A stretch of DNA of 21,018 bases from a virus (IMGVR_UViG_2740892421_000008:1-21018), one strand, 5' to 3'; positions 1,937 through 20,263 are shown, numbered from the stretch's first letter. The notes: a model not told the origin generated them from the sequence alone. Made by a program: numbers and translations.

Positions 1937-2145
1937 AACTGAAACGTCTCCTTCACTTCCGGTTCATATACCCAGTCCGGCAACACGATTTCCACTCCCG
2001 CCGGATAGACCGGACCAAGGTCAGCCAGTCCGGGATTGGCTTCCAGTACCGCCGCCAGTGACTGGTTAAGCCCGGTACTGCCATAGTGTCTCTGGCAGAT
2101 GTCATCCAGCATATCGCCGTCAGTAGTCCGCCAGTTTTTCGCCAT
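1927..2145 (-). CDS. X: Tail protein X (P2 gpX family)
   Basis: 72-aa ORF whose product (…DICQRHYGSTG…AAVLEANPGLADLGPVYPAGVEIVLPD…) follows the same pattern as P2 gpX (…DAICVRYYGRTEG…VLAANPGLAELGAVLPHGTAVELPD…). Overlaps both neighbours. Confidence 0.8.
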   Translation of the reverse strand: MAKNWRTTDGDMLDDICQRHYGSTGLNQSLAAVLEANPGLADLGPVYPAGVEIVLPDWVYEPEVKETFQLWD

Positions 2146-4689: not shown

Positions 4690-4742
4690 CTCCTTTAAAA
4701 AAGAAAAGGCGGCCTGAGCCGCCTGAATGACAGGATCCCGGA

Positions 4743-5261
4743 TTAAACCCGGATGATTTTTTTCAGATCCGCCAGAACATTAACGCCATTAATACGACGT
4801 ACAAACTCCTCCGGAATAATGCAGATGGTTTCCACACCGTCGACAGCCTGGCGGTAATAACTCAGCGACATTTCCACCGTCACCGAGGCGTCTGCCTGCG
4901 ATGTTGCCGGACGTGCATCCGGCGTGATACTGGTGATCATCCCCTGCAGGGTTTCCACCTGTCCGCTGGTCGCATTCCCCACCTGATAGCCCTGGCGGAC
5001 AACAATCTCCGGCGAATAAAGCCCGGCCTGTAATCCCAGCAGCGTCAGCATGGCAACATCATAGCCATAAATCTTAAACGAACAGGTCAGCGCTTCCATG
5101 CCGTCATCCACTGCCACCGGTGCATCCATTGCGCCGGTTTTGATATCCACTGTCGTGATATTAATGGCTGGCGGCGTGTATTCATGCGCCCCCTGAAGGC
5201 GGATCCCGCCAGGAAGAAATAACGCCCATGCGCGCAACAGTTTTTTTTCACCCGTCATCAT
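4743..5261 (-). CDS. FII: Tail tube protein (P2 FII-like)
   Basis: 172-aa ORF directly after the sheath gene with a 4-nt stop/start overlap, the conserved sheath-tube order and a size typical for a contractile-tail tube protein. Confidence 0.85.
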   Translation of the reverse strand: MMTGEKKLLRAWALFLPGGIRLQGAHEYTPPAINITTVDIKTGAMDAPVAVDDGMEALTCSFKIYGYDVAMLTLLGLQAGLYSPEIVVRQGYQVGNATSGQVETLQGMITSITPDARPATSQADASVTVEMSLSYYRQAVDGVETICIIPEEFVRRINGVNVLADLKKIIRV

Positions 5262-6733
5262 ACTGTCAGTTCCTCCAGCGCCAGTTTATTGTTAATCATT
5301 GCCCGCAGTGTCAGGCGCTCCAGTGGTGACTTCGGCCCAAAGTCATAATCAATATACAACTGCCCTGCCGCCAGGGTTTCTGCAGTGTTCAGTTCATCGT
5401 TCAGCCATGCACTGCCACCGTGGATCGCGCCCAGATTTTTAAGCTGACGCATATAGGCATTAATGCTGCCAAGAATGTCGTCTGCCACATCCCGATCAAG
5501 CGGGCGATCGACATAAGGCAGCATGGCCTCCTGGATGCTGTCCTCAATCACATCTGCAGTGCGGCGTACCGGCTCAAAACGCCACTGACTGTGGGATGTG
5601 CACAGACGGTTACCCCAGTGTTTAAAACCGTCATGGCGAATAATGGTGGAGATATTTTCCATGTTCAGCAGGTTTGCCGTGCAGTTCTGCTCCCCGAGAA
5701 TAAACGTATCCACCTGCTCCAGACCGGTGATATTCATCACGTCCTGGTTTGATTTGGACCACCACCACCCTTTTTCGTAATCAATACGGGCACGCAGCCC
5801 GGCAGCACGAGCCGAATATGGACGAAATATCGTTTGCCCGCTGTCATCCGTCACTGACACGCGCGGACGCAGCAGCTCCACACGCCCACCAAATGACGCG
5901 CGCCGCTGAACCACATCCTGCGGCGTTGCCATTGAGGGCGAGTCAATATAGGCCACAGCCCGCAGCTTCGCGGCATACGTTTCCAGCGCCTTTGCCACGC
6001 CATCATCCTCACTGTACCCCGTGGCGATGAGGATGCGCGGTTGATAGCCTGTCACGCCCTTACTTTCTGTCAGCGCCTCCATGGCCTGAATCACCGCCGC
6101 ACGCTGTTCGGCCTCTTTCGCCTTTGTTTTACTTTCTGCGCGCACCACAATCACCAGCGCCCCAGTCTGGTCAAAAATATCTCGCAGGGCCGGGTATAAT
6201 GTTCCGGCTGTGCCCAGTTTCCCGGCCTGAGTAATGGCCCCTGCCACCACCACTGGTGTATTGACCGGGAACGCCTCATCTTCTCCGCCGGATAACGTCA
6301 GGCTGAACGGCAACACCACTTTATTTTCAGCGTCTCCTGCATTCAGGGTGCTGACAGCCGCCGTCACAGGCGAATCCCCCAGCGCATTCACCACTTCAGT
6401 CACACGGTCCGCCGTGGCGTTAACCTGGCTGTGTTCGTCCGTCCCCAGTGTTATCGTCAGGGTCGTACCTTTCAGCGAGGCCACTGTCTGCGCATTTTGT
6501 TCTGTGGCAGCCACAGCAACAACCGAAATCTTATTACCGGCCCGACCTTCCTGTTTCGCCGTGAAATCCAGCGCCGTTCCCAGCAGCCAGGAGCCGGCTG
6601 TGCCGGAAGCGCACACACCACCAGAGGCGTCCGGCGCTGTCCCCACCAGGCCAATCACTGCCGTGGAGATGGTCTGCACGGCAACCGTGCCTGTCGTCAG
6701 TTCAATGGTTTCAACACCATGTAATCCGGACAT
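5258..6733 (-). CDS. FI: Tail sheath protein (P2 FI-like)
   Basis: 491-aa ORF. The C-terminal two thirds (…RILIATGYSEDDG…RHDGFKHWGNRLCTS…LAAGQLYIDYDFGPKSPLERLTLR…) match the P2 FI sheath pattern (…RDGFRFWGNRTCS…[24 protein letters not shown]…). Strong GGGAGAAA Shine-Dalgarno upstream. Confidence 0.9.
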   Translation of the reverse strand: MSGLHGVETIELTTGTVAVQTISTAVIGLVGTAPDASGGVCASGTAGSWLLGTALDFTAKQEGRAGNKISVVAVAATEQNAQTVASLKGTTLTITLGTDEHSQVNATADRVTEVVNALGDSPVTAAVSTLNAGDAENKVVLPFSLTLSGGEDEAFPVNTPVVVAGAITQAGKLGTAGTLYPALRDIFDQTGALVIVVRAESKTKAKEAEQRAAVIQAMEALTESKGVTGYQPRILIATGYSEDDGVAKALETYAAKLRAVAYIDSPSMATPQDVVQRRASFGGRVELLRPRVSVTDDSGQTIFRPYSARAAGLRARIDYEKGWWWSKSNQDVMNITGLEQVDTFILGEQNCTANLLNMENISTIIRHDGFKHWGNRLCTSHSQWRFEPVRRTADVIEDSIQEAMLPYVDRPLDRDVADDILGSINAYMRQLKNLGAIHGGSAWLNDELNTAETLAAGQLYIDYDFGPKSPLERLTLRAMINNKLALEELTV

Positions 6734-6746
6734 ACATTTCTCCCAT

Positions 6747-6768
6747 AAAAAAACCGCCCTCAGGCGGT
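6747..6768 (-). terminator. Candidate intrinsic terminator between the fibre-assembly gene and the sheath gene
   Basis: Minus-strand transcript reads ACCGCC-UGAG-GGCGGU followed by UUUUUUU (+ strand aaaaaaaccgccctcaggcggt). It sits 20 nt after the fibre-assembly stop and 13 nt before the sheath ATG. Confidence 0.45.
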
Positions 6769-6787
6769 CAGATGATTAACTTCTTTT

Positions 6788-7333
6788 TCAGGTATTTTGT
6801 GGCTGCTCAGGCCAGCTAATATTGTTGTATGTGGTCTTATCCGTAATAGCGCTGAAATCCATCGCCTGCAGCGATTTCGCGTAAATGCGGTACGCTTTCA
6901 GCTTCTCCCTGTCTTCGTCACTGATTAATCCCAGCAGCAGGTCTTTTCCCCATTCGCTGGTCATGATGCTGACCTGTTTTAACAGTGCATCACGCTCATC
7001 TTCCGCTTTAAGTTTGTAGTCAAAAACAAATTCATCATTGCGATAAAACCAGTAACCCGACGCCTCAATGCGACGATTGGCGGTAATATCCGGTAACTCA
7101 ATCACGCTTTTATTTTCCGGGCAGATTGAGGTGATGTCTTTTCCGACCCAGACCACCTCGCCAGTTTCAACATAAATAACTTTCAGAGTGTCTGGCTGAA
7201 ATTTTTCCTGGGCTTCGTGCCATTCCTGACCATCATCGGAGAACAGCCACAATAAAAATTTATGCTGTCGCGCCAGCTGGTATTGCTCAATTGTTTTAGG
7301 GTTTTGTGCCGTAATATTTTTTAAGTGCATCAT
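6788..7333 (-). CDS. tfa: Tail fibre assembly protein (Tfa / P2 gpG-like)
   Basis: 181-aa ORF immediately downstream of fibre gene H, with the size and C-terminal character (…YNNISWPEQPQNT) of enterobacterial phage fibre-assembly chaperones. Confidence 0.8.
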   Translation of the reverse strand: MMHLKNITAQNPKTIEQYQLARQHKFLLWLFSDDGQEWHEAQEKFQPDTLKVIYVETGEVVWVGKDITSICPENKSVIELPDITANRRIEASGYWFYRNDEFVFDYKLKAEDERDALLKQVSIMTSEWGKDLLLGLISDEDREKLKAYRIYAKSLQAMDFSAITDKTTYNNISWPEQPQNT

Positions 7334-7335
7334 AA

Positions 7336-8553
7336 TTACAAACTCGCTACATTCCGCCAGACCCCATTAATCAGAACCTGCACCGGGCGGGCATTGGCCC
7401 AGTCCATACTTTCACCACCGTCAAGACCGCTGATAAGGTGACCTGATGGTGCATTCCCGCCACGCCCAATACCAATGGCACCGCCCAGACGCACATCCTG
7501 TACACCGCCTGTTTTGGTTTGATAGCGGGCATCAAAGTTTCCGTAGTCTGACGGTGTTACCCGACCTGAAACATTCACTGCCCGGTTACTTTGTAACGCG
7601 CCATTCTGAAAACGGAATACGTGCTGACCATTGGCATAAACATCCAGCAGGCCGTCACCATTCTGTTTCAGGCCGGTATCGTTATCTCCGAAAGCAATTG
7701 AGTTTCCACCCAGCGCGTTCTGAACGCCGATACCCAGCGCACCATTGACCTGAGAACCGCCGCCAACAGACACTTTATGCGACATGGATATTTCACCCGT
7801 CCGCAGATTAATAGTGAACGGTCGAAGTGGACCAATATCGCCATTCTCGCCCTGACCTTCACTGGTAGGGATAAGGTGCAGGCACTCTTCCGAACGACGA
7901 AAAATCAGACCAAAGGCTTCGTTGAAAATCCTCAGCGCATTAACACCACGGATTTTCAGTTCCCCGGTCATGGTGTCACCATCACGCTGAACGGCACTTT
8001 TTGCCTTGTCCACCGTAGGTTTTAATCCGAGGTTTTCAACAGCCTCATCCTTGTCTTCCACATCCGAAAGATTCTTTTTTCGTTGCAGATAGCGTCTGTC
8101 TCCGATTTCCTGAGTAATAATGGCCCTGTCCGGATCAACTTCCAGCACCACGTTTTGTGCGTGCGTCAGCCCAAGAACCAGCGTCAGAATAACTTCCTTG
8201 ATAACAGAGTCCGTCTGGTCTGGTAAAAAGGTGTCCGGATAACGCCCGTATGCGATAAGCGTACCACTGTCGCTGATCATCCCCAGTTCACGAAGGGTTT
8301 TACCGGGGTATGATTTGCAGTCAATCACAACATCCCCGCTGATGAATCCCTCCTCCACCGCGCCGTCCGAAAAGGGTTCCTGTCCGAATTCGCCGTACAA
8401 TGATGTCATTGCTGCCATTTCATCCGGCGTGGATGGCAATGCCTGCCCGCCCCCGTCACCAAGCAGAACATGCCGGACGGTCACGGTTTGCCCGTTCTGA
8501 TATGCTGCTTCAATTTCTGCAGCGCCGGACGTTGTCAGAATCAGTCCATTCAT
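7336..8553 (-). CDS. H: Tail fibre protein (P2 gpH-like)
   Basis: 405 aa. The N-terminus (…TTSGAAEIEAAY…HVLLGDGGG…) parallels P2 gpH (…TTAGAAKLAAAT…MAVGDGGG…), and the C-terminal region (ALGGNSIAFGDNDTGLKQNGDGLLDVYANGQHVFRFQNGA…) parallels the gpH C-terminus (ALGGSSIVLGDNDTGFKQNGDGILDVYANSQRVFRFQNGV…). Confidence 0.85.
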   Translation of the reverse strand: MNGLILTTSGAAEIEAAYQNGQTVTVRHVLLGDGGGQALPSTPDEMAAMTSLYGEFGQEPFSDGAVEEGFISGDVVIDCKSYPGKTLRELGMISDSGTLIAYGRYPDTFLPDQTDSVIKEVILTLVLGLTHAQNVVLEVDPDRAIITQEIGDRRYLQRKKNLSDVEDKDEAVENLGLKPTVDKAKSAVQRDGDTMTGELKIRGVNALRIFNEAFGLIFRRSEECLHLIPTSEGQGENGDIGPLRPFTINLRTGEISMSHKVSVGGGSQVNGALGIGVQNALGGNSIAFGDNDTGLKQNGDGLLDVYANGQHVFRFQNGALQSNRAVNVSGRVTPSDYGNFDARYQTKTGGVQDVRLGGAIGIGRGGNAPSGHLISGLDGGESMDWANARPVQVLINGVWRNVASL

Positions 8554-9140
8554 ACACCTGCCTCACTCTGCCCGCCAGTGGGCACTGTCTTTGTTATCAC
8601 ACCGTTACTTCTGATTTTTTCCGTCGCCATCACATAACCGTAACAAAATCCCCGCCCTGTGCTGTTCCCGTAAACGTGAATACTGAACCAGCTGCGCAGA
8701 TTTTTGGCACGGAGCACCGCATGCTTCAGATCCTGATGATCATTCATCAGCACCGGTAAATCCTTCTGCTCCACGTTCAGACGAAAGGTATACGGCTCCC
8801 CGGGTGGGGTCTGCTCATACCACTCAACAATCTGCGATCGGAAGGGACTGTCAGCCAGCGATGCCATCAGCGCCGCTTTAGTCCCTCTGTGGCGGTGGAT
8901 GTAAGCAGCACGTTTTATCGCAGACCTTTTTTCCGTCTCCGTCCAGTGTTCATTCCAGGTATCCACCGCCATTTCCCAGGCCAGCCATGGCAGCAATTCA
9001 GCAGGACATAAATCGGGATTTTTCACATAGCGGATCAGGCAGACCGCTATGTCTGACAGCATATCTCCGGCGACACAGTCCACCACCCGCTCTGCCAGAC
9101 TGGCACTGACCGGCAGTATGCTCCTGATATCGTCATTCAT
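8550..9140 (-). CDS. I: Baseplate/tail protein I (P2 gpI-like)
   Basis: 196 aa; …NPDLCPAELLPWLAWEMAVDTWNEHW… matches the P2 gpI pattern …NPDTCPANLLPWLAWAFSVDRWDEKW…. Overlaps both J and H. Confidence 0.85.
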   Translation of the reverse strand: MNDDIRSILPVSASLAERVVDCVAGDMLSDIAVCLIRYVKNPDLCPAELLPWLAWEMAVDTWNEHWTETEKRSAIKRAAYIHRHRGTKAALMASLADSPFRSQIVEWYEQTPPGEPYTFRLNVEQKDLPVLMNDHQDLKHAVLRAKNLRSWFSIHVYGNSTGRGFCYGYVMATEKIRSNGVITKTVPTGGQSEAGV

Positions 9141-10047
9141 CAGTTGTCTCCACCTTATTCAGCGTTATCTTACGGCACCACGGTGCCTGCCCCATCGCAG
9201 GAACGATATCACTGCCCGGAGAGGTCAGATTCACCGTAATCACCCCGGTCTGGTGAAGGGCACCATCCATGCCAGAACGGGATGCCACCGAGCCAATCCG
9301 GTGGACGCTGTCAGTGTATGACTGCAGCGCCTTGCGGGCATTTGCCATAACCAGTTCACCATCCAGTCCGTAGGGAATATGAATATCCGCCACCACATCG
9401 TAGGGAATAATTTCTGCCGTCCGGACACTGACAAAATCCGTCAGGGGACGGGTTTCATCATCACAGACTGATGCTGCCACCTTATCCAGCAGGGGTTGTG
9501 ATGCAGTGCCATTTCCGGAGCGGGATAACACATAAAGAAAAACCCGGCCTTCCTGCGAATGTGTTTCCGGTCCGTAAGCCTTCACATCCAGCACATCAGG
9601 ATCAGCACTTTGTGCAAAATAGTGATACGCATTTTTCGCGCCGGCGGTGCTGAGCCGTGCCCATGACAACTGGATACGTTCGCGAAAAGCGTCATCATCT
9701 TCATACACCGCCGGCGTGGGCGGAATGGTGCTGTCGTCTGCCGGGGTAATAACCAGCCGCTGAACCTGATAATTCGCGCCAACCTGATCCAGATCGTTCC
9801 CACCGGCACTGGCAAGCAGTACAGCACGGACAGCATCATTTATCTGCTGGCGCATCAGCGCCACCCGATAAGCCAGCGCCTCTGCCCATTTATACGCGGG
9901 ATCAGATTCCACCAGAGCCGAAAACAACGTATCCAGCTCCTGATACTTCGCCACTATCTGAGTGACCAGCACAGCGGTGTCCGGCACCTCCACCGCATCC
10001 GGTACTGGTATCGCGGACAGATCAATAATTGCCTGAGACGTTGCCAA
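9133..10047 (-). CDS. J: Baseplate assembly protein J (P2 gpJ-like)
   Basis: 304 aa; …LVITPADDSTIPPTPAVYEDD…RERIQLS… closely matches P2 gpJ (…LTITPADDSTIPPTPAVMESD…RLRIQQA…). Confidence 0.88.
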   Translation of the reverse strand: MATSQAIIDLSAIPVPDAVEVPDTAVLVTQIVAKYQELDTLFSALVESDPAYKWAEALAYRVALMRQQINDAVRAVLLASAGGNDLDQVGANYQVQRLVITPADDSTIPPTPAVYEDDDAFRERIQLSWARLSTAGAKNAYHYFAQSADPDVLDVKAYGPETHSQEGRVFLYVLSRSGNGTASQPLLDKVAASVCDDETRPLTDFVSVRTAEIIPYDVVADIHIPYGLDGELVMANARKALQSYTDSVHRIGSVASRSGMDGALHQTGVITVNLTSPGSDIVPAMGQAPWCRKITLNKVETTDE

Positions 10048-10378
10048 TTTTTATCTCCTCGAGTCGAATCGTGTCCTGAGTTTCGTTATTCACCCCGACA
10101 AGCGTCAGCCACGCACTTCCTTCTCCTGTCCACGTCACTTCCACCCGCCGGAGAGTCAGACGGGGTTCCCAGCGTTCAAGGGCGGTTACCGTTTCACGGA
10201 CAATTCTCACCCGCGTGAAATCATCCTGTGGGTTATCAAGCAGACTGAAAAGTCTGCTGCCGTATTCCCTGAGCAGGACCCGGCTGCCGACCGGTGTTGA
10301 CAAAATATCAGTGACGGACTGGCGCAGATGTTCGTTACCGTGCAGATATCTGCCGGTGGCTGAATCAATACCAATCAT
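10022..10378 (-). CDS. W: Baseplate assembly protein W (P2 gpW / gp25-like)
   Basis: 118 aa; …DILSTPVGSRVLLREYGSRLFSLLDNPQ… parallels P2 gpW …DILRTPVGSRVMRRDYGSLLASMIDQPQ…. Located between V and J. Confidence 0.85.
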   Translation of the reverse strand: MIGIDSATGRYLHGNEHLRQSVTDILSTPVGSRVLLREYGSRLFSLLDNPQDDFTRVRIVRETVTALERWEPRLTLRRVEVTWTGEGSAWLTLVGVNNETQDTIRLEEIKIGNVSGNY

Positions 10379-10411
10379 GTTGTTTATTCCGGAAAAAGAA
10401 CTGAAAGGGGA

Positions 10412-11035
10412 TTACATTTGCTGACCAGGCTGTCCGGTGCTGCCACCACTGTCGCCCCGGTGATTGTGACCGTTATAGACAATTCTGATTTGACTCATCG
10501 TTCCGTGATAATCAGAAACCTCACCACCGACCATCAGATCCGCCTTAACCACCGCCTCAGCATTCATGGTTGCTTTACCCTGTACGGTCAGGGTATCTGT
10601 GATTTCTACCGGACCGTCCAGGGTTCCCCTGCCTGTAATTTTATAGCTGCCGCCTTCAGCCAGCGTGATGGACAGGACATTAGCCTGACGGTCGTAACGG
10701 ATTTCCGTTCCGGTATCAAACAAAATAACATGTTCGTATTCACTGCCCTCAGGGACAGGAATGGCGTCAATATTGGGCCCCGGATACACCCGACCGTTAC
10801 GCAGATCGCCCGCCTCCGATATCACTGTAACGGCATCTCCGGGGGACGGATAATTACTGACCTGCATGTAGCGCCCGGACTGTACCTGAATCCAGGGCAA
10901 CGGAGGCGAAAGCACATCCCCGATATCCACCCGAACCATCACCGGGCTACCCGGGATCACCTCGTCCACCACGCCGCGACGGACCATGTCCGCCACCCTG
11001 CGGCGTAACTCTGCCACTTCATCCGCCAGACTCAT
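10412..11035 (-). CDS. V: Baseplate spike / assembly protein V (P2 gpV-like)
   Basis: The track ORF 10412..11329 runs through the upstream gene in another frame; the homologous protein starts at the internal ATG 11035..11033 (MSLADEVAELRRRVADMVRRG…) and ends …HGTMSQIRIVYNGHNHRGDSGGSTGQPGQQM. Size (about 207 aa) and the C-terminal H-x-H…GDSGG pattern match P2 gpV. Confidence 0.8.
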   Translation of the reverse strand: MSLADEVAELRRRVADMVRRGVVDEVIPGSPVMVRVDIGDVLSPPLPWIQVQSGRYMQVSNYPSPGDAVTVISEAGDLRNGRVYPGPNIDAIPVPEGSEYEHVILFDTGTEIRYDRQANVLSITLAEGGSYKITGRGTLDGPVEITDTLTVQGKATMNAEAVVKADLMVGGEVSDYHGTMSQIRIVYNGHNHRGDSGGSTGQPGQQM

Positions 11036-11585
11036 CACCGGTGCCCTCCGATTTCCAGATAAGACGATAATCCTGCTCATGTCTCTTGCCGGTTTCCGGT
11101 ACTTTACCCAGCCAGACTTCCTGTAACGGCGCACCTGCCGGAACCGCAAACGGATCTTCGCCGACCGGAATGTCCTGTTCAAAAGAGACACGGAAAACGA
11201 TGTAGTCGTCCAGCAGCCGGTCGAAGGTATCCACCTCAGCATCGATAAAAACCGCCGGATCAACGTTATCCAGCCCGAACGTGGCTCCCTCAATCCAGTC
11301 AGATAAATCCATCGCGAGACAACGGGCAAAAATCTGCGGTTTTGGCACGTTTTCCGTCTTCCCGGCCCGGTCTGTCACCACAAACAGATCACATTTCAGC
11401 GTGACCCGCGTTTGCCCGTCGGCAAAATGAGCCTTGTCCCAGCCCGGTACATCCACAAACACAGCAGGCGTCACCAGTTGCGTCACTTTTTCCGGGTACT
11501 CATCGGCATCTTCCACCCAGGGAATTTGTTTCAGACTGTCAATCACCGCCTGATGCCAGGCGCCCATCATCAATGGCTCCATCAC
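11019..11585 (-). CDS. Hypothetical structural protein at the head-tail junction (putative tail completion / terminator-position protein)
   Basis: 188-aa ORF in the late operon, acidic, translationally coupled on both sides (start overlaps the upstream stop, stop overlaps the gpV start). No family recognised by eye. Confidence 0.5.
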   Translation of the reverse strand: MMEPLMMGAWHQAVIDSLKQIPWVEDADEYPEKVTQLVTPAVFVDVPGWDKAHFADGQTRVTLKCDLFVVTDRAGKTENVPKPQIFARCLAMDLSDWIEGATFGLDNVDPAVFIDAEVDTFDRLLDDYIVFRVSFEQDIPVGEDPFAVPAGAPLQEVWLGKVPETGKRHEQDYRLIWKSEGTGDESGG

Positions 11586-12304
11586 TCCAGCCCCTTAAAT
11601 ACCCGGAATTTCAGTTCATGCTCAAAATTTTTCAGGATCAGTACTTCCGCATCCGGAAAAACAAAATCCTCTATACGGTTCAGCATGGCTTCATAAATAT
11701 CAATTTCCGCTTCACGCACCCTCCGTCGTCCGGATGTCTGTCGGATCAGTATCATTTTCCTTTTTGATATACGTCCGTTACGATTTTCCGCTTCGAACTG
11801 GTTGATAAAGGCATCATCCGTTGACCAGGTGCTGACAGGCAGGGATTCCCCGGCAGGTTTAAAACGGATCTCCCGTGCCTTCCTGCGGTGAGAAGCTGGT
11901 GCAAAACGCCCCCGCTCATCGCGCAACTGATGGCGTTCGCCGCGTCGTCCCCCACTGATGCGTCCGCGCAGATCGCGTACTTTGATGGCGTTCAGACCGA
12001 ACCATACCTTCGCCTCATCAAACTCATCACCGTTACGACGAATGATAAAATTATGCAGAACACGCTTTTTGATCATTTTCTGACTGCGTGGGGCAACCTG
12101 TTTTTTAAACTCTGCCATAGCCTTCATCCGCAGTGCAGACGCGGCTCTTTTCAGCGCCACGCCCCAGGCTTTACGGATCTGACTTTTTGACCCACCCAGT
12201 TTAGCGATAATTTTCAGCACCTCATCTTCATCAATATCGACGACGAGGTTTCGTGCCAGCCGTCGCTGCCGGGCACTGCTTCGTTCATGCTCTCTGACTG
12301 CCAT
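11582..12304 (-). CDS. Hypothetical basic (Arg/Lys-rich) structural protein at the head-tail junction (putative head-tail connector / tail completion)
   Basis: Long ORF on the operon strand between FII-like and gpV. I place the start at ATG 12304..12302 (MAVREHERSS…), giving a 20-nt overlap with the FII stop; the track's start at 12364 would give an 80-nt overlap. The strongly basic composition is reminiscent of lambda gpZ, but no convincing alignment by eye. Confidence 0.45.
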   Translation of the reverse strand: MAVREHERSSARQRRLARNLVVDIDEDEVLKIIAKLGGSKSQIRKAWGVALKRAASALRMKAMAEFKKQVAPRSQKMIKKRVLHNFIIRRNGDEFDEAKVWFGLNAIKVRDLRGRISGGRRGERHQLRDERGRFAPASHRRKAREIRFKPAGESLPVSTWSTDDAFINQFEAENRNGRISKRKMILIRQTSGRRRVREAEIDIYEAMLNRIEDFVFPDAEVLILKNFEHELKFRVFKGLE

Positions 12305-12692
12305 AACGTTTACTCGGTCGTTCCGGTGCAGCAGGTGTATTTCTCCCGGGCTCTCCACGCGCAAGGGTGATGGTAATCACCCCCTGACCCGCAGTGCCTG
12401 ACTCATCCCAGCCGGGATCGACTACCTGATAGGGCTCGCCGTGGATCATGACCCTGTCATATTTTTTCAGACCGGCGGCCCATGCGCTCCGGGTAAATAA
12501 CACGGGTGCAGTATCACGAATTTCGCCGCTGCCAGTGTTCATCCCGGTGTTATCTGCCGGGGCATCAAAAACGGCACGGATTTTTCTTTCCGTGCCGCCC
12601 GGATATATGCTGATTTCCGTCCCCATCGTATCCAGGATGATGTCATCCGCATCACTCATGGCCTGATCGAACAGATTATCGAACATCATCAC
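12285..12692 (-). CDS. FII: Head-tail joining protein, lambda FII-like
   Basis: N-terminus MMMFDNLFDQAMSDADDIILDTMGTE…RAVFDAP matches lambda gpFII MADFDNLFDAAIARADETIRGYMGTS…RGVFDDP. The ORF is 135 aa against 117 aa in lambda, so the 3' end is uncertain. Confidence 0.75.
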   Translation of the reverse strand: MMMFDNLFDQAMSDADDIILDTMGTEISIYPGGTERKIRAVFDAPADNTGMNTGSGEIRDTAPVLFTRSAWAAGLKKYDRVMIHGEPYQVVDPGWDESGTAGQGVITITLARGEPGRNTPAAPERPSKRYGSQRA

Positions 12693-13054
12693 TCCCGGAT
12701 TTTTTCTGCCAGACCGTCTGCCAGCAACGCGGGAACTGTGGCTTCATTAACCAGCACAACACTGGAGGCCCGGGCAAACATCAACATTTTTCCCGTCACA
12801 GCATCACAGGCTGGCATATGCGCCGTTTTCAGCATACGCACCCGGGCGAGTCCCTGCTCAGAATGCATTCCGTCGCCGGATGCATCGTTGCCCACCTCCT
12901 CCTTCCCCGTCTCCTCCCCATCGAATCCGGCGGCCTCCTCCTCCCATTCCGCCAGACGCTGCTCGAGATCGGCTTTTGAACCTGAAATATCTGCTTCACG
13001 CCCCAGAATCACTGCCAGTTCCTGCAAACGTTCAGTCATCTGCTCTTTTGTCAT
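12689..13054 (-). CDS. FI: DNA packaging / head assembly protein, lambda FI-like
   Basis: I place the start at the internal ATG 13054..13052 (MTKEQMTERLQELAVILGREADISGSKADLEQRLAEWEEE…), which parallels lambda gpFI (MTKDELIARLRSLGEQLNRDVSLTGTKEELALRVAELKEE…). The track's longer N-terminal extension would overlap the major capsid gene and the terminator hairpin. Confidence 0.75.
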   Translation of the reverse strand: MTKEQMTERLQELAVILGREADISGSKADLEQRLAEWEEEAAGFDGEETGKEEVGNDASGDGMHSEQGLARVRMLKTAHMPACDAVTGKMLMFARASSVVLVNEATVPALLADGLAEKIRE

Positions 13055-13073
13055 CACATCTCTCCCGTGCGCT

Positions 13074-13099
13074 AAAGAAAAAGGCGGGAATATCCCGCC
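13074..13099 (-). terminator. Candidate intrinsic terminator / attenuator directly after the major capsid gene
   Basis: Minus-strand transcript reads GGCGGGA-UAU-UCCCGCC (perfect 7-bp GC-rich stem, + 13083..13099) followed by UUUUUCUUU. It starts 5 nt after the capsid stop (13105..13107) and lies upstream of the FI-like start at 13054. Confidence 0.45.
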
Positions 13100-13104
13100 C
13101 CGTC

Positions 13105-14133
13105 TTATTTCACCTGAACCACCACAAACGCATCCGGATCCGGCAGCACCATCAACGGCGCAGACTGCGTCATGGTATATTCGCAACCAGGATCCCCCAC
13201 TTCCTCCCAGTGTTTCGGATAACGAATCGCAGAGGTGATCCCTTCACTCAGCGCCTGATTATCCTGGATTGCGCCATAGCAACGGACGCCCTCCGCCTGA
13301 GTGTTTCCCAGAATCAGTGTACCTTCCGGCAGATAACGCTGTTCATCCCCGTTTTCGTCAACATACGTTGTCTTCGCCACCACAATTGCCAGATCGCCGT
13401 AATGACCTTTAAAGGAAACCACGGAGCCCAGGTCTTTCAGTGCCGTTTCCAGCTCAGATTTGGAGCCACGGCGGGTATCCAGTTTCTCACGGAACAGTTT
13501 AAAACCGTTCAGCATACGCCAGACCGTACCGTCCATAATCGCGATATTGATGGTACCGGAAGCAAAATCGCAGTACGCATCAAGATCATGCGTCGGATCG
13601 AAGGTGTCAGCATTCTGCTTTGACCATTCGCGTCCGCCAGCCTGCGTAATGTTATTGGCGGCAGAACGCCCAAAATCCACTTCCACCGTCTCAAACTGCT
13701 CGCCGCTCATAGTGTATTTACCCTGCAGAACAGCACTGACTGCCTGCATTTCTTCCACCTGCACAATCGCCTGCTCTTCCTGTTTCAGGTTGTCCGTCAG
13801 AATACGCAGACGGCGGTAAGCCGGGTCATTAAGGCGGGCCGGATCTTCCCCCGGAAGACGTTCCACAGCCTGCTGATAATCAAAGCGGTGTTTTGGTTTT
13901 ACATAACCGGGACGTAACACGCGGGTTTCACCACCACGGCTGCGCAGCACTTTGCCTGACACCACCGGAGACACATACGCCGCAACCGGTGTTTTGCCGG
14001 TAATTTTATCCAGCATGACTTCCTGAGTATGGAAAGTGATCGTGCGACGAAAGAACAGCTCAAGAAACAGCGCACGAAATTTCACTTTCTGCTCGGTGTA
14101 CCCGAGTAACTGACGCGTGGTAAATAACCCCAT
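13105..14133 (-). CDS. E: Major capsid protein, lambda gpE-like
   Basis: 342 aa, collinear with lambda gpE along its whole length: MGLFTTRQLLGYTEQKVKF…VSPVVSGKVLRSRGG…PGYVKPKH…QVEEMQAVSAVLQGKYTMSGE…KLDTRRGSKSELETALKDLG…MTQSAPLMVLPDPDAFVVVQV. Confidence 0.93.
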   Translation of the reverse strand: MGLFTTRQLLGYTEQKVKFRALFLELFFRRTITFHTQEVMLDKITGKTPVAAYVSPVVSGKVLRSRGGETRVLRPGYVKPKHRFDYQQAVERLPGEDPARLNDPAYRRLRILTDNLKQEEQAIVQVEEMQAVSAVLQGKYTMSGEQFETVEVDFGRSAANNITQAGGREWSKQNADTFDPTHDLDAYCDFASGTINIAIMDGTVWRMLNGFKLFREKLDTRRGSKSELETALKDLGSVVSFKGHYGDLAIVVAKTTYVDENGDEQRYLPEGTLILGNTQAEGVRCYGAIQDNQALSEGITSAIRYPKHWEEVGDPGCEYTMTQSAPLMVLPDPDAFVVVQVK

Positions 14134-14202
14134 AATTTATTTTCCTTCAGAAACACAAACGGGCCGCATCGCGACCCGTTTTTTCAGTTAATCACTTCAC
14201 CA

Positions 14203-14538
14203 TCAGGCGTGGCTGATGGCACTTCCCACAAATGCGTTGGCTTTTTTCACCGCATCCACAGAGTCAGGCCAGACCAGCGACTCAGTGGCAAACGTACCGC
14301 TTTTGTAGTACGTCAGCGTGGGTTCTGTTCCGGTAAGCGCCAGAGCCAGCACCCCCACTGCCGTTCCGGCTTTCTGACCATCCCATGCCACCAGTTTTCC
14401 GGTGGCGTCATCCACCATCAGTGGCGTCAGTGCAGGTGTGGCAGCACTGATACCACTGGTGGCGGTTGCGGTATGCGCCGGATCGCTTCCGGCAAAAATG
14501 CGCACATCTGCACGCTTTTCCGTGGTGGTTTTAATCAT
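14203..14538 (-). CDS. D: Head decoration protein, lambda gpD-like
   Basis: 111 aa; …[37 protein letters not shown]…YYKSGTF…AFVGSAIS… parallels lambda gpD (…[37 protein letters not shown]…FYKSGTF…AFAGTAIS…). Confidence 0.9.
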   Translation of the reverse strand: [111 protein letters not shown]

Positions 14539-14577
14539 TTTTTCAGTCTCCTGATTTATCTGAATTCCGGATACCGC

Positions 14578-15150
14578 TTACGGCATACTCATCAGCAGGT
14601 CTTCTTCCCCGCGCCCGGCAGTTCCGCCACCGGAAACCGCACTGGCAGCATGCTGTGCCATAAAGCGATCAAAAAGTGTTTCCTGTGACGGTTGCGATGC
14701 CGCCGGCGCGGCTGCCAGCAGCGTTTTCGCCTGCGCCACCGTCATTCCTGGCTGTTCTGTCAGTGCCTGTGCAAGTTGTTCGCGCCCTTTCGCCTCCGGC
14801 AGCGCCATAATCTGATCGCCGACACTTGCAGAACCCGCAACCGGTGCCGCCGCCAGTAACGTTTTGGCCTGGTCAACGGTCATTCCCGGCTGTTCAGCCA
14901 GCGCCTGCGCGAGTTGTTCACGCCCTTTTGCTTCCGGCAACGCCATAATCTGATCACCCGTGCTGTCAGTACCGGCAACCGGCGCAGCTGCAAGCAACGT
15001 TTTCGCCTGCTCAACCGTCATTCCTGGCTGACCTGCCAGCATTTGCGCCAGTTGCTCGCGCCCTTTCGCCTCCTGACAATTCAGGATCCCCATCACGCGC
15101 TGATTTTCCTGGACCACCGCTTCAGCAACGGTCAGATTTTTAACTGTCAT
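14578..15150 (-). CDS. nu3: Nested scaffold protein (lambda Nu3-like), translated in the C frame from an internal start
   Basis: Internal in-frame ATG at 15150..15148 is preceded on the minus strand by ACAGGAGGAAACG-ATG, a perfect AGGAGG Shine-Dalgarno (+ 15156..15161) with a 5-nt spacer. Predicted product is 190 aa (MTVKNLTVAEAVVQENQ…) and contains all three repeats. Lambda Nu3 is made the same way from within gene C. Confidence 0.55.
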   Translation of the reverse strand: MTVKNLTVAEAVVQENQRVMGILNCQEAKGREQLAQMLAGQPGMTVEQAKTLLAAAPVAGTDSTGDQIMALPEAKGREQLAQALAEQPGMTVDQAKTLLAAAPVAGSASVGDQIMALPEAKGREQLAQALTEQPGMTVAQAKTLLAAAPAASQPSQETLFDRFMAQHAASAVSGGGTAGRGEEDLLMSMP

Positions 15151-16056
15151 CGTTTCCTCCTGTGTAACAGATTCATTCAGTGCAGAAACCATCACTTCAA
15201 CAGCATCTGCAGCATTAATCAGTTGATCAGCCAGGCCTGCATCAATGCCTGCCTGACCGTCATAAACGGCAGCCTCGGTATTCATCACCGCCTCTGAACT
15301 CAGCCCCGTATAAAGCGCCACCTTGTCGACAAACATCCGGCGGGCCTCATCAATACGGCGCTGAAAATCTGCACGCACACCTGCCGGCAATGCCTGAATA
15401 CTGTTGCCGTCAACCTTGTGCTGCCCGGAGTAAATCAGCGTGATGTCCACCCCTTCCTGTGCCAGTTGTTTCTCGTAACTGGCGTGCGCCATCATCACGC
15501 CAATCGAACCAATTTTTGCCGTCTGCGTGACCAGCCGACGGGTACAGGCTGCCGCCAGCAACATGGCGGCTGAACAGGCCATGTCATTACACAGCGCCCA
15601 CACGGGCTTCTGTTCCCGCAGACGGTAAATCATGTCAGCACAGTCAAACGCCCCGGCAGCCTGACCGCCCGGGCTGTCGATATCCAGCAAAATGCCGCGC
15701 ACATCCGGATCATTCACCGCCATCTGAAGGCGGGCCGTCAGGCCGTCATAGCCAGTCATGCCGGAGTAAGGCCGCAGGGTACCCAGTTTATGCACCAGCG
15801 TGCCGCTCACCGGCAGAATGGCGATGCCATTCTTCACCTGGTAACTCTTTGCCGGACGCTGACCGCCCGCCATATAGTCAGTCACAGCCAGTTGCATTCC
15901 ATCAGCATCAAGCTGAACAGCCTGCTGAGGAACGGCAAGGCTGCCGGCCCCTATCTCCTTACCCAGCGCGCAAAAGAAAACCCGCGCATAGGCGGGTTCC
16001 AGTAAAAGCGGTTCATTAAATGCCATGGCGGCAATATGCGATAAATTACGACGCAT
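14578..16056 (-). CDS. C: Prohead protease / scaffold protein, lambda gpC-like (S49/ClpP-type N-terminal protease domain, repeat-containing C-terminal scaffold domain)
   Basis: 492-aa ORF directly after the portal gene (start overlaps the portal stop). The N-terminal two thirds look like a serine peptidase domain; the C-terminal third carries three tandem copies of a 46-aa module. Confidence 0.88.
   Translation of the reverse strand: MRRNLSHIAAMAFNEPLLLEPAYARVFFCALGKEIGAGSLAVPQQAVQLDADGMQLAVTDYMAGGQRPAKSYQVKNGIAILPVSGTLVHKLGTLRPYSGMTGYDGLTARLQMAVNDPDVRGILLDIDSPGGQAAGAFDCADMIYRLREQKPVWALCNDMACSAAMLLAAACTRRLVTQTAKIGSIGVMMAHASYEKQLAQEGVDITLIYSGQHKVDGNSIQALPAGVRADFQRRIDEARRMFVDKVALYTGLSSEAVMNTEAAVYDGQAGIDAGLADQLINAADAVEVMVSALNESVTQEETMTVKNLTVAEAVVQENQRVMGILNCQEAKGREQLAQMLAGQPGMTVEQAKTLLAAAPVAGTDSTGDQIMALPEAKGREQLAQALAEQPGMTVDQAKTLLAAAPVAGSASVGDQIMALPEAKGREQLAQALTEQPGMTVAQAKTLLAAAPAASQPSQETLFDRFMAQHAASAVSGGGTAGRGEEDLLMSMP
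14698..15072. repeat. Tandem in-frame coding repeats, 138-bp period (about 2.7 copies of a 46-aa module EAKGREQLAQxLxxQPGMTVxQAKTLLAAAPVAG…DQIMALP)
   Basis: The landmark gccataatctgatc recurs on the + strand at 14804 and 14942 (138 bp apart). The three protein copies are near-identical, while the DNA copies differ at many positions. Confidence 0.8.
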
Positions 16057-17617
16057 CGCCTTTTTCTCCCGTTGTCTGTCGGATCTGCTGCTGAAACGTG
16101 TCCTTTATCCAGATGGGGCGGGGAAGACCCGCTGCCTGTCGCTCCTGGCTTTCACGCAGTTGCTGGCGGAAAATCTCCTGATAGTCATCGCCCATCAGGG
16201 CCAGCTCTTTCTCGTACGTGCTCAGGCCACCTTCAATACGCATCACCGCTTCCTGCACTTCCTTAAGGCCATCAATCGCCATGCGACCGGCACCAATCCA
16301 CTCGGCACGACACCATCCGGAACGGGCCTCCCAGAATGAAAAACGGGATTTCGGCGGGCGGATCACACCGCGAATAAGCGCTTCCTCCAGCCAGCAGGCA
16401 AACATCTGTGATGCCAGCCGGCTGGCCACAAATTTTCGTTTGCCCATAAAATACCGCCACGACTCATTGGCGGATGCCCTGGCACTGGAATAACTGACCT
16501 GTGAATAATCACGGGAAAGCTGTTCATAGGACACCCCCAGTCCGGCAGCAATGTAACGTAACAGCGCCTTTTCCAGTTCAGAGAAACCATTATCTGCATT
16601 CTGCGCTGTCTGCAGATTCAGTGAATCCCCCGGATAAAGATGTGGAATACGGACCCCGCCCAGCTTTACCGTATTGGTGGCGTAATAACGCGCGTAGCCT
16701 TTCATGATGGTGTTCAGGGGATTTTTACCGCCATCTCCCACCCCGGCGATATATTCAAATGCTTTTTCCGAATCCAGCGTGGATTCAATCGTCGCGGCAT
16801 ACATCGCCCGCACCACCGCCGACTGCAGTTGCGTGGCCTGCAGTGTGTCGAGCATCTTGAGACGCTCCATGACAGAATAAAACTGGTTGGCCCCGCGCGT
16901 CTGCCCGTCCTCCTGCGGCTGAAACACATGGATCATTCCCGGTCGCCCGGAGGGCAGCGCCGCCGCAATCCGCGTCCAGTTGCTGACACCGTAACCTGGC
17001 CAGTCATCTTCCTGAACATGGTAGGCCAGTGCTTTTCCGTACCGGTTGATTTCCACCCCGGCACGCATAAAACGATCGCCGATGCCATAAACGGGCGTAC
17101 TGACACGTTTCGGGCTGATGGTCTTGAATTTCGTCCGGAATAATGACGTGGATTCCGTATCCCATACGGGCTGGACAAAAATTTCACCGTTAAACGTATG
17201 AACGCCCACCCCTTCACGAATAAATTCGGTAAACGAGCGACGCCCCTCCACATCCATCGAACCAAACACAGGATCGCAATATTCCATCCACGCCGCCTCC
17301 ACATCTTCAATAAAGGCATGCGAATCAGCTTCCGACATCCCCAGCCAGCGCCAGTTGGGCCGGTAGCTCAGGCGAAACATGTGCCCGACGATATGGTCTT
17401 TATGAATTTCCACTGCATTTGCGGCAATACCGTTGTTACGGACCAGATCATCCGCACGGGCGTTACCCAGCTGAATGGAAGGTAAGAGCGCCACATCGGC
17501 ACTTTCCGGTGCAGGCAACCATTCCGCAAGCTGCCCGCCAAATCCGGTACCCCCTCCGGAATATCCCATACTCTGCCGCAATGGCTGCCCGTGCAGATCC
17601 ACCAGTTCCCCGTTCAC
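16046..17617 (-). CDS. B: Portal protein, lambda gpB-like
   Basis: 523 aa, matching lambda gpB along most of its length: …GNARADDLVRNNG…NGEIFVQPVWDT…FRTKFKTISPKR…HVFQPQEDGQTRGANQFYSVMERLKMLDTLQATQLQSAVV…LLRYIAAGLGVSYEQLSRDYSQVSYS…GSGRMAIDGLKEVQEAVMRIEGGLSTYEKE…. Confidence 0.93.
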   Translation of the reverse strand: MNGELVDLHGQPLRQSMGYSGGGTGFGGQLAEWLPAPESADVALLPSIQLGNARADDLVRNNGIAANAVEIHKDHIVGHMFRLSYRPNWRWLGMSEADSHAFIEDVEAAWMEYCDPVFGSMDVEGRRSFTEFIREGVGVHTFNGEIFVQPVWDTESTSLFRTKFKTISPKRVSTPVYGIGDRFMRAGVEINRYGKALAYHVQEDDWPGYGVSNWTRIAAALPSGRPGMIHVFQPQEDGQTRGANQFYSVMERLKMLDTLQATQLQSAVVRAMYAATIESTLDSEKAFEYIAGVGDGGKNPLNTIMKGYARYYATNTVKLGGVRIPHLYPGDSLNLQTAQNADNGFSELEKALLRYIAAGLGVSYEQLSRDYSQVSYSSARASANESWRYFMGKRKFVASRLASQMFACWLEEALIRGVIRPPKSRFSFWEARSGWCRAEWIGAGRMAIDGLKEVQEAVMRIEGGLSTYEKELALMGDDYQEIFRQQLRESQERQAAGLPRPIWIKDTFQQQIRQTTGEKGDAS

Positions 17618-17823
17618 AGCCCCACTCCTGCCGGGGCACGACGCCGTCCGGATACGCCCAGCGCACTTTCCAGCTCTTTAATATACTGGCGTAGTTCACC
17701 AATCGTCGCCCGCGAATACTGAACCTGACGCCCGTCCTTACTGACGGAAACCACAGCACGTCCGATCATCAGTTCATGTAATGCCCGACGGGCATCACAA
17801 AGCATTTCATGCGTATAAACCAT
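17614..17823 (-). CDS. W: Head-tail joining protein, lambda gpW-like
   Basis: 69 aa; …ARRALHELMIGRAVVSVSKDGRQVQYSRATIGELRQYIKELE…RRRAPAG… parallels lambda gpW (…[42 protein letters not shown]…RRRGPAG…). Confidence 0.88.
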   Translation of the reverse strand: MVYTHEMLCDARRALHELMIGRAVVSVSKDGRQVQYSRATIGELRQYIKELESALGVSGRRRAPAGVGL

Positions 17824-17826
17824 TCT

Positions 17827-19743
17827 TTATCCTCCACTCAGTGCAGCCGCGATTTCTTCCAGACTCATCTCATCGTCGTCCTGCTCATCTCTTCTGGCAC
17901 GGGCCAGTGCTTCAAGATCCAGCTGCCACCGCTGAACTGAAATACGCAGGGCAGCATAGGCATATACCAGGCAGTCGAGGGCTTCGTTGCGTCGCCCTTT
18001 TTTATCCCACAGCAGTTTCACCCTGCCATTAACCACCTTCTCCACCAGCTCTTCCGCCACGATCTGACGCGCCTCTTCTTCCGAAAAAATGTCGGGGTTA
18101 TCCGGAAAACGGACGGTATACGGGGCGGCTTCACTGACAGAGACCACTGGCAGGGCAAAACGGGCGTACAGCATTTCCTTGACGGTATCGGAGCCCACCT
18201 CACACAAAAACACACCACGCTGGTTGCGCTTTTTGGGCATGGTGATCACCGGCTTGCCGTACACCGATGCCCCTTTTATGGGAAGCACAAAAAAAGTGCC
18301 GTGTTTCCTGGAACGCTGATACACAATGTCCTGGTCGATACCACCGGTATCCCAGCAGACACGGGAAATGGAAATTTCAGTACCGTCAGCATGACGATAT
18401 TTTTTCCGGATCACCGTATCAACACGTTTAAGGGTGTCCTCGTCTTCCGGTCGCCCCATGATAATTTGCTTATCAATCAGAAAGGCTTCTTCGCCGGGAG
18501 CCCAGCCCCAGACATAAATTTCATAGCGATCTTTCTGGGAGTCGATCCCGGCGGTCAGGTAAACCACCCGCAGGGGAACCTGCGCACCATAGTGGCAGAC
18601 TTTTTCCAGCAACAACTCAAAGCTCAGTTTTTCTGCCACGGCCTCTTCATAGGGCTCCCCGAGCGTGGTGTTAATAAACGTCTTAACACCGTTCGGATCC
18701 TTCAGCGCATCCAGCCAGTCATAAACAATCTGTACCCAGGTGGTGAACGGACTGTACGCTGTCCACACGTGGTACGTGATTGAGCGCGGTGGCGGCATCT
18801 CCTCATCACCGGCGCTGTAAAATGCCAGGCCGTCGCGCGTCCACATCCCGGTATTGTCACAAATCCAGCGCCCGTCGGTCTGGTCAAGTTCCGACTGCCG
18901 GATCACACAGCCATTATGTTCACACAGGTAATACACCGTTTCCGGTTTACCCTTCTCCCATTTCAGGCCAAACGGCGTCGCATCATCGCCAAACTTCAGA
19001 TACTGGGCCTCCCCGCAATGAGGGCAAGGGACATAAAACCGCATGAAATGCGCAGATTCATTCGCGGCTTTCTCAATCTGGCAGGAGCCTTTAATTTTCG
19101 GCGTTGAGCCGCGTATGGATTTAGGCCATACCGAGCCTTCGATACGTTTATCGCCAAGCAGCGTCGGCGAGCCTTCTTTTTCCACATCCGGTTCAAACGA
19201 GGAGAGTTCGTCATAGCAGACCACATCCACAGATTTTTCACGGTAGTTTTTAGCTGCGGCACCGCCCAGGCACCAGAACCCCACGCCGGAGGAAAAACGC
19301 TTCAGGGTAAGTGTATTATCGCGGTGCTTTCTTCCGTACCATGGAGCCAGCTCCAGCAATGCAGGGACATCCCTGATCGTTGGCTCAACATGAGATTTCA
19401 TGAAATCTTCTGCCGCAGAATCTGTTGGCTGAAAAAGCAGACTGTTACGGGATTTATGCTCAATAAAATAAGCCTCCACCCCCAACAGCATTTTGGTGTA
19501 ACCAACGCGCGCCGATTTAATCAGATTAACGGTGCGGATCCGGTCATTTCCCATGCTGTTCATAATGGCAACCTGAAACGGCAGGGTTTCCCATTGTCCG
19601 GGAGTGTATGAAGATTCTTTCGGCAGATAATAATGTTGATCAGCCCACTGAACCGTCGTCAGTGGAACCGGAATATTGAGAGATAAAAGCCCTGTAGCTA
19701 TCGCACCGGCTGCATTAGCTGCCTTCTGTGCGTCTGAAATCAT
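17827..19743 (-). CDS. A: Terminase large subunit, lambda gpA-like
   Basis: Collinear with lambda gpA: …[25 protein letters not shown]…[14 protein letters not shown]…FIEHK…[16 protein letters not shown]…[14 protein letters not shown]…[14 protein letters not shown]…[25 protein letters not shown]…[18 protein letters not shown]. The track start (19785) adds 14 residues; I prefer ATG 19743..19741, which gives lambda-like spacing to the WAD motif and a 29-nt overlap with the small subunit. Confidence 0.93.
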
Positions 19744-20263
19744 CAATCCACCTGCCCACGTTTTCACCGGCTTTAGCTGCAACATTGGAGGCTTTCGCGA
19801 TTTCAGTTTTCACCACATCAAGGTGTGATGGTGAAATATCCGGATATTTACGCTGTAATGTCAGCGGCACACGTACAAGTATCCCCGAAATCTCCTGTGC
19901 CACACGTTGCAGAATGAAGGTAAACAATTCCGTTTCCAGCACCAGCCCTTCTTCACGGGCATTTTTCAGCTCCTGTGCGTCAGCCTGTGCTTTGGTGAGC
20001 CGGTAGCGTTCATAGTCAATGGTGCCGGGTTGTAAATCTGATTCTGCAGCCGCACGCAAATCTTCCAGTTCTTTGCGGAGCTTTTCGTTTTCGATATCTT
20101 TTTCCCGCTGCGCATACCACTCAATGGCTTCTGCAGTATTGAACATGGCTTCGATACCTTTGCCTCCCCCCGACAAAACTCTCAGCCCCTGACTTTGCCA
20201 GCCAGTGATTGTTCTGACATCGCACTCAAAAATTTCCGCCAGTTTCTTTTTGTTAACCTTCAC
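19715..20263 (-). CDS. nu1: Terminase small subunit, lambda Nu1-like
   Basis: 182 aa; (M)[11 protein letters not shown]…[20 protein letters not shown]…[48 protein letters not shown]… parallels lambda Nu1 (MEVNKKQLADIF…GGGKG…[47 protein letters not shown]…). The start codon is GTG (20263..20261) with GAGG about 10 nt upstream. Sits directly downstream of the cos repeats. Confidence 0.9.

Follow-up and report, generated by a model that had tools for sequence, protein, structure and literature searches.

Tandem 46-residue modules in the scaffold arm of a lambda C/Nu3-like prohead protease: a conserved unit of variable copy number

The scaffolding proteins of bacteriophages P22 and phi29 bind the capsid protein through helix-turn-helix motifs (PMC11565965, PMC11922011), and the scaffold Nu3 of bacteriophage lambda interacts with E, B, C and itself (PMC3224144). 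For phage 21, the decades-old GenBank record of the head operon (M81255) marks three repeat_regions in gene 6 as 'Tri1 box', 'Tri box' and 'Tri3 box', with the remark 'function unknown; putative'. Here we describe an array of such repeats in a viral sequence of 21,018 nucleotides (IMGVR_UViG_2740892421_000008), the whole of which is called the window below. When the phage 21 Tri boxes (amino acids 324-357, 371-407 and 418-455) were translated, they turned out to be the same module, with the same profile match. Judging from these translations, the repeated module is not new, and the same kind of repeat was annotated in phage 21 as the Tri boxes, a point that the initial annotation of this DNA had missed. 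A search of the literature on Nu3/gpC, phage 21 repeats, tandem repeats in scaffolds and the S49 prohead protease found no paper on module repeats.

The array lies in a minus-strand gene encoding a protein of 492 amino acids, as identified from the ORF list and its translation (Table 1). The protein matched Peptidase_S49 (PF01343) in Pfam at amino acids 146-290 with an E value of 2.4e-33 and PHROG 53, 'head maturation protease', with an E value of 1.6e-205, and SppA structures aligned with amino acids 77-289 in a PDB search (E=1.8e-16). In the SppA alignment, Ser162 fell on the Ser of the SppA 'MAASGG' motif, and Ser162 was invariant across 48 homologs. The gene is flanked on one side by a lambda-type portal gene and on the other by genes that encode a D-like decoration protein and an E-like major capsid protein. 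The Pfam families of the neighboring genes were GpA_ATPase, gpW, Phage_portal_2, HDPD, Phage_cap_E and Packaging_FI, and the order of terminase, W, portal, C, D-like and E-like genes, derived from the ORFs, Pfam and the RefSeq annotation of a 99.94%-identical prophage, was that of a lambda-type head operon. Because of the S49 domain, the PHROG 53 match and the location among the portal, D-like and E-like genes, the gene is identified from its sequence as a lambda C/Nu3-type S49 protease-scaffold, and Pfam, PHROG and gene order thus agree with the initial annotation of this DNA, which had placed the repeats in the scaffold domain of a C/Nu3-like protein. Two plus-strand ORFs overlapping the array (14914-15297 and 14209-14688) were judged to be antisense artefacts of GC- and Ala-rich coding sequence.

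The prophage combines a lambda-type head module (small and large terminase, W, portal, C/Nu3, D-like, E-like and FI) with a P2-type contractile tail (window 848-20263), the tail genes including the sheath (5258-6733), the tube (4743-5261), a gpD-like gene (848-1936), baseplate V/W/J/I and tail X. The 99.94%-identical copy in ETEC1746 is located at the Rac site (uspF..ttcA) together with intR, xisR, recET, kilR and sieB, and STEC313 carries the same head-tail block but a different early region and integrase. The first 11 nt of the C gene lie within the end of the portal gene (window 16046-16056), and the longest portal ORF (GTG, 523 amino acids) exceeds the RefSeq call (ATG, 507 amino acids) by 16 codons. 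In the alignment with B. subtilis SppA, the column of the 'IKSG' lysine, which we take to be the catalytic general base of SppA, is occupied by Tyr209 in the present protein (window 15415-15431, amino acids 209-214), with an invariant His213-Lys214 five residues downstream of Tyr209. The general base of the phage protease family may, from this alignment, differ from that of SppA. The closest phage records were phage 21 and its relatives, in which 70% of the gene aligned at about 74% DNA identity, and no isolated phage with the C gene of the window above about 75% DNA identity was found in the phage collection searched.

An in-frame ATG at codon 303 (15150-15148) stands five bases after an AGGAGG within the C-like gene. 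The AGGAGG and the internal start are conserved in phage 21 (codon 302), in L003, which is a three-module ortholog from a complete E. coli genome, and in lambda (codon 309), and in phage 21 the annotation assigns the equivalent AGGAGG site to gene 6 as its ribosome-binding site. We infer from these signals that a nested scaffold is expressed from codon 303. The predicted product would have 190 amino acids, a mass of 19.5 kDa and a pI of 4.7, and 138 of its residues would make up the three modules. In lambda (J02459, region 4300-5800), the AGGAGG and ATG at C codon 309 are homologous to the gene 6 start of phage 21 and to codon 303 of the window; nu3 of lambda in GenBank starts at codon 239 (201 amino acids), and a start at codon 309 would give 131 amino acids.

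A direct-repeat search located three 138-nt copies at 14703-14840, 14841-14978 and 14979-15116, two of them with 79% and 65% identity to the reference copy. In the protein register, these correspond to three in-frame modules of 46 amino acids (138 bp) on the minus strand at 14659-15072, which bears out the tandem 46-residue modules of 138-bp period in the initial annotation; its anchors gccataatctgatc at 14804 and 14942 were likewise present, 138 nt apart. The modules start with the consensus EAKGREQLAQxLxxQPGMTVxQAKTLLAAAP and carry a net charge of -1 to -2. Since module 3 retains just the first 31 amino acids of the unit, the array had earlier been counted as about 2.7 copies. Module 1 and module 3 matched in BLASTP with an E value of 9e-13, far beyond chance. 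Tandem Repeats Finder reported nothing at the array locus because the DNA copies are too divergent. Module 3 is the counterpart of the last module that is found about 40-50 amino acids before the C terminus in family members: the last module ends 41 amino acids before the C terminus in the window and 40 in lambda, and the family median is 49. In the C-terminal tail, F160, M164 and the terminal P were invariant in the alignment. Weak Pfam matches in the repeat region (DUF732, T2SSK and Bac_DNA_binding; E = 0.005-0.012) were below the cut-offs and were set aside as generic two-helix resemblance.

Table 1. Features of the C-like gene and its module array in the window
Feature	Coordinates	Strand	Basis
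Lambda C-like gene: S49 prohead protease fused in frame to scaffold arm	14578-16056	-	ORF, Pfam, PHROG, gene order
Peptidase_S49 domain, aa 146-290	15187-15621	-	Pfam
Shine-Dalgarno AGGAGG for the nested scaffold gene	15156-15161	-	AGGAGG, five bases, in-frame ATG codon 303
Predicted nested in-frame scaffold gene (Nu3 / phage 21 gp6 equivalent), 190 aa	14578-15150	-	Conserved internal start
Short helix 'MGILNCQ' preceding module 1, counterpart of 'DQIMALP' preceding modules 2 and 3	15073-15093	-	Alignments, AlphaFold2
Module 1, aa 329-374: EAKGREQLAQMLAGQPGMTVEQAKTLLAAAP + linker + short helix	14935-15072	-	Repeat search, protein register
Stretch holding the one-unit deletion/collapse junction, in module 1	14941-15021	-	Comparison with the four-module allele
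Module 2, aa 375-420	14797-14934	-	Repeat search, protein register
Module 3, aa 421-466: conserved core 14704-14796, then diverged 'LFDRFM' helix	14659-14796	-	Alignment
C-terminal tail, aa 452-492, ends LLMSMP, common to protease and predicted nested scaffold	14581-14703	-	Alignment

The copies were compared with one another over the 33-amino-acid module cores. Protein identity was 85-91% and DNA identity 78-82%, as expected from the initial description of near-identical protein copies encoded by divergent DNA. Between copies, 43-70% of the synonymous sites but only 5-9% of the non-synonymous sites differed, giving dN/dS values of 0.02-0.16, and all ten differences between modules 1 and 2 of the four-module allele were synonymous. 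When the window was compared with L003, a collinear ortholog with 91% DNA identity, dN/dS was 0.11 in the module cores, 0.13 in the protease domain, 0.26 in the linkers, 0.54 in the C-terminal tail and 0.91 in the N-terminal arm. Since the copies are alike in protein and different in DNA, each of them is functionally constrained, about as strongly as the protease domain, and the copies are old duplicates held alike by purifying selection. The initial suggestion that the duplication is not recent thus stands, but the suggestion that selection maintains the copy number does not: the number is not fixed by selection, with four or five modules in close relatives and one in lambda. In the same comparison with L003 (window 14704-15093), dS was 0.51 in the module cores but 0.21 in the protease domain, a difference of about 2.5-fold that might stem from mosaic ancestry, from conversion between modules or from selection that disfavors identical DNA in the repeats.

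We sought relatives of the array in 5,426 complete E. coli genomes and classified the best 60 matches by their span. Four modules (1617 bp) were found in 47 of these, and three modules (1479 bp) in a single match, L003, at 91% identity. Another three matches spanned 1608-1618 bp, and nine aligned partly; one of the nine that was inspected, STEC313, has five modules (1755 bp). The exact window allele, sought as a C gene with at least 99% identity, occurred in none of the 5,426 complete E. coli genomes. Across relatives, the module was found to be conserved and repeated, in two to five copies.

The nearest complete counterpart of the window is the ETEC1746 prophage, a four-module relative with 99.94% identity over 15 kb; the major capsid, decoration, portal and large terminase proteins of the two are 100% identical. 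Their C genes have zero differences in the 984 nt upstream and the 357 nt downstream of the junction module. Module 1 of the window consists of the 5' part of module 1 of the four-module allele (ETEC1746; L002) followed by the 3' end of its module 2, with a diagnostic base at 14940, and the DNA of window module 2 is 100% identical to module 3 of that allele. Modules 1 and 2 of the four-module allele have an exact stretch of 81 nt in common (module nt 52-132), and the junction specific to this allele, from the 3' end of module 1 to the 5' end of module 2, reads ...GGCGCTGCCG followed by GAAGCAAAAGGACGTGAACAG. Removal of exactly one unit from the four-module allele gives the window allele, as would result from a real deletion (through unequal recombination or slippage) or equally from a de Bruijn graph that collapsed during assembly.

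Three, four and five modules occur in otherwise nearly identical alleles, and comparison of the three-, four- and five-module alleles showed that new modules are hybrids. The array demonstrably gains and loses units when modules recombine unequally or slip. With relatives carrying two to five copies and the window differing from the four-module allele by one, the initial warning that the array is prone to copy-number change and an assembly hazard proved well founded. The longest exact direct repeat was 18 nt in the window gene, 81 nt in the four-module allele and 144 nt in the five-module allele; because it holds no exact repeat longer than 18 nt, the window allele should be much less prone to slippage than the four- and five-module alleles.

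A profile of 38 module positions was searched against 1.84 billion representative proteins and matched 834 clusters at E <= 1e-3. Among the best 150 of the 834 clusters, 131 had one module, 14 had two and five had three. The proteins of at least 380 amino acids among these 150, which are protease fusions, were single-module proteins in 54 of 56 cases, the module ending at a median of 49 amino acids before the C terminus. Single-module proteins have a spacer of 39-124 amino acids, rich in Ala, Glu, Thr and Asp, between protease and module, and an arm of 120-218 amino acids; in multi-module proteins the spacer is 25-28 amino acids and the arm 198-284. Across the family members examined, what stays invariant in the scaffold arm is the module together with the tail. 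Tandem arrays are characteristic of the phage-21-like lineage of Enterobacterales (E. coli, Salmonella, Citrobacter, Cronobacter, Edwardsiella and others), and the few distant two-module cases look like independent duplications. One candidate, P0258 (352 amino acids, four weak matches to the module profile), was rejected as an unrelated repeat protein.

Among the best 120 homolog clusters, 74 had three modules, 41 had four, three had five and two had two. In the three-module set, identity was 0.75 between modules at the same position in different proteins, 0.59 between different positions and 0.60 within one protein. Because same-position modules resemble one another most, even between proteins, the triplication is ancient and positionally stable in phage-21-type proteins. 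The window modules are 0.87-0.94 identical to one another, and all of them are closest to position 1 of the three-module homologs (0.77, 0.71 and 0.69), with at most 0.69 to positions 2 and 3; the identity comparison gave no one-to-one match of the window modules to Tri1, Tri2 and Tri3. In the window clade the array has been rebuilt or made homogeneous, and divergence at synonymous sites followed. Among the individual proteins, P0054 (449 amino acids) is of the phage 21 type with two modules, the first a Tri1/Tri2 hybrid that points to contraction, and P0133 has a deletion from the C terminus of the protease into Tri2. Three others look like chimeric gene calls or assemblies: P0121 joins a methyltransferase-like N terminus to a three-module scaffold, P0156 joins a tape-measure-like N terminus to lambda C, and P0043 (610 amino acids) is named baseplate protein V.

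The structure was predicted with AlphaFold2 twice, for the full protein (48-sequence alignment, mean pLDDT 68.8) and for the 190-amino-acid scaffold (pLDDT 63, pTM 0.28). In both runs, every module was predicted as a short helix (...IMAL), helix B (REQLAQxL), a PGMT loop and helix C (VEQAKTLLAA), the helices of module 1 being at amino acids 334-341, 348-357 and 366-371. The helix-turn-helix-like module that the initial annotation had wondered about is thus predicted as a short helix plus a helix-loop-helix. The mean pLDDT of 10-residue blocks was mostly 78-85 in the modules and lower in the linkers of the full-length model, and about 55-77 in the scaffold-only model. Because confident packing between modules is absent from the models, the predicted array looks like beads on a string. 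A PDB sequence search with the 190-amino-acid scaffold and a family profile returned only SppA, for the protease part, and nothing for the scaffold below E=0.1. Foldseek with the scaffold-only model, a weak query (pTM 0.28), found no match in PDB and BFVD at E <= 0.001, and its weak top viral matches were the tails of other S49 prohead proteases.

In the explanation that we favor, each module would consist of a short amphipathic helix (IMAL) and a subsequent helix-loop-helix (EAKGREQLAQxLA - PGMT - VEQAKTLLAAAP). It would act as the interaction unit through which scaffold molecules associate with one another or bind the major capsid protein in the interior of the procapsid, comparable to the helix-turn-helix motifs by which the P22 and phi29 scaffolds bind coat protein. 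Extra modules would make the scaffold and the co-terminal protease multivalent, with variable valency and length of the arm, and in single-module relatives such as lambda a long low-complexity spacer would occupy the position of the extra modules. This reading is proposed because the module is conserved, its copies are constrained, their number is variable and the extra modules replace a disordered spacer; the contacts of lambda Nu3 with E, B, C and itself are consistent with it. We give roughly even chances to the explanation that the scaffold arm is an array of helical interaction units that provides multivalency, is loosely constrained in copy number, with one to five modules working in lambda-type capsids, and does not set the capsid size. 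The more specific proposal that the array is a tunable valency device, in which each helix-loop-helix binds one capsid subunit or neighboring scaffold, is considerably more doubtful. Several observations speak against an interaction unit. The modules are acidic, while the coat-binding motif of P22 is basic; the PDB and viral models searched contained no similar fold or sequence; lambda gpNu3 is reportedly intrinsically disordered, going by a title of Medina et al. from 2011; and the global confidence of the scaffold-only model is low (pTM 0.28). The extreme C-terminal tail, instead of the module, could be the capsid-binding element.

Tolerance of one to five copies would be equally expected of a dispensable spacer. 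The extra modules may be structured filler that has no specific partner, replaces the low-complexity spacer and drifts nearly neutrally in copy number by unequal recombination, a rival that we hold to be rather unlikely. It would account for the presence of three, four or five modules with the same capsid genes, for the trade-off between spacer length and module number within a total arm of 120 to 284 amino acids, and for the predicted beads-on-a-string arrangement; yet neutral filler should gather amino acid changes, and the module cores are as constrained as the protease while linkers and N-terminal arm are relaxed. Nor would neutral filler be expected to show only synonymous differences between the two youngest modules, or phage-21-type positions that each keep their own signature (0.75 against 0.59). 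A different role for the conserved boundary would follow if the S49 protease cut at putative sites where IMALP meets EAKGRE, dicing the scaffold into peptides of about 46 amino acids that exit the procapsid. The most conserved polar motif, E-A-x-G-R-E, does recur at each module boundary, and gpC degrades Nu3 before DNA packaging in lambda (PMC3224144), but the conserved residues are mostly hydrophobic core positions spread across the whole module, and 38 of them are more than cleavage sites alone require, so we regard such cleavage cassettes as improbable. Least credible of all is the proposal, made in the initial annotation, that module number sets scaffold geometry and hence capsid size. Scaffold variants do alter capsid size elsewhere (P2/P4 Sid and 80alpha/SaPI CpmB), and the same capsid protein is paired here with three to five modules; however, genome length does not rise with module number, being 48,502 bp in lambda (one module), 42,931 bp in phage 21 (three), about 41 kb in the ETEC1746 prophage (four; with IS1 and pseudogenes inside) and about 44 kb in the apparently intact STEC313 prophage (five), the two prophage values being rough as their ends are from annotation and not att sites. 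All four lengths are within the range of a lambda-sized head, and the three- and four-module alleles are accompanied by identical portal, capsid and decoration proteins. Control of capsid size by module number thus finds no support in genome lengths, used as a proxy, or in the head proteins.

Whether the window truly has three modules has to be weighed as well. The real locus may have four, one of them lost when the assembler bypassed the loop that the 81-nt stretch common to modules 1 and 2 creates. The hybrid module 1 is the product expected from a skipped loop, the gene has no difference from the ETEC1746 allele other than the missing unit, and the exact three-module allele is absent from the complete genomes in which four modules predominate among the best 60 matches; all 18 contigs with the exact protein are shorter than 1 Mb. 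On the other hand, these 18 contigs come from at least eight independent samples (NCBI drafts and Logan assemblies), and the exact allele occurs on two flank haplotypes with 64-70 nt differences between them. Four-module proteins, too, have draft-assembly sources, another three-module allele (L003) is present in a complete genome, and real unequal recombination within the 81-nt stretch yields an identical product. We therefore consider an assembly artefact unlikely, though by no means negligible, and a recent loss of one unit from the four-module allele the most likely origin of the window's three.

The analysis adds to the earlier record of the repeats that a single module is the norm family-wide and is the conserved core of the arm among the members examined, that selection on each extra copy is as strong as on the protease domain, that two to five copies are polymorphic on identical head genes, and that the window array derives from the common four-module allele by contraction, or by assembly collapse, of one unit. 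The natural alleles with one to five modules on identical capsid genes are a convenient series for finding the binding partner of the module. If the array were a valency device, gain or loss of modules would quickly re-tune assembly kinetics, scaffold-to-capsid stoichiometry or protease loading, and the same series would be a ready-made experiment on internal scaffolds. For annotation, caution is advised: Tandem Repeats Finder misses the array, and a copy number from a draft (three here, four in the nearest complete genome) is untrustworthy unless reads span the array.

Among the known systems, the C-terminal motif of P22 gp8 and that of phi29 gp7 resemble the module in being small two-helix motifs near the C terminus of a flexible internal scaffold, and are possible functional analogues. 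The window module is unlike them in that it is acidic, tandem-repeated, located 41 amino acids from the end and also made fused to the protease, and no similarity to a P22-type helix-turn-helix domain was found by PDB sequence search or by Foldseek with the low-confidence query model. Lambda gpC/gpNu3 has in common with the window the S49 protease and the order of the head operon, and its in-frame scaffold of common C terminus corresponds to the one predicted in the window. Lambda C also contains the same module (EAHGREEQARVLAETPGMTVKTARRILAAAP) at amino acids 369-399, 40 amino acids before the C terminus, but as a single module after a spacer of about 60 amino acids rich in Ser, Thr, Ala and Gln, and its scaffold arm is 141 amino acids compared with 198 in the window.

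Phage 21 gp5/gp6 (head-tail preconnector / scaffold) has the same gene position, the nested layout that is predicted for the window and the same place of the ribosome-binding site and ATG. Its gp6 likewise has three tandem modules of 46-50 amino acids with the consensus EAKGRE...PGMTV...LAAAP and a similar C-terminal tail. In phage 21 and its Salmonella and E. coli relatives, however, the three positions have diverged from one another (within-protein identity 0.58-0.61) and are positionally orthologous between proteins (0.75), whereas the modules of the window clade are homogenised (0.87-0.94) and position-1-like, and number mostly four and sometimes five.
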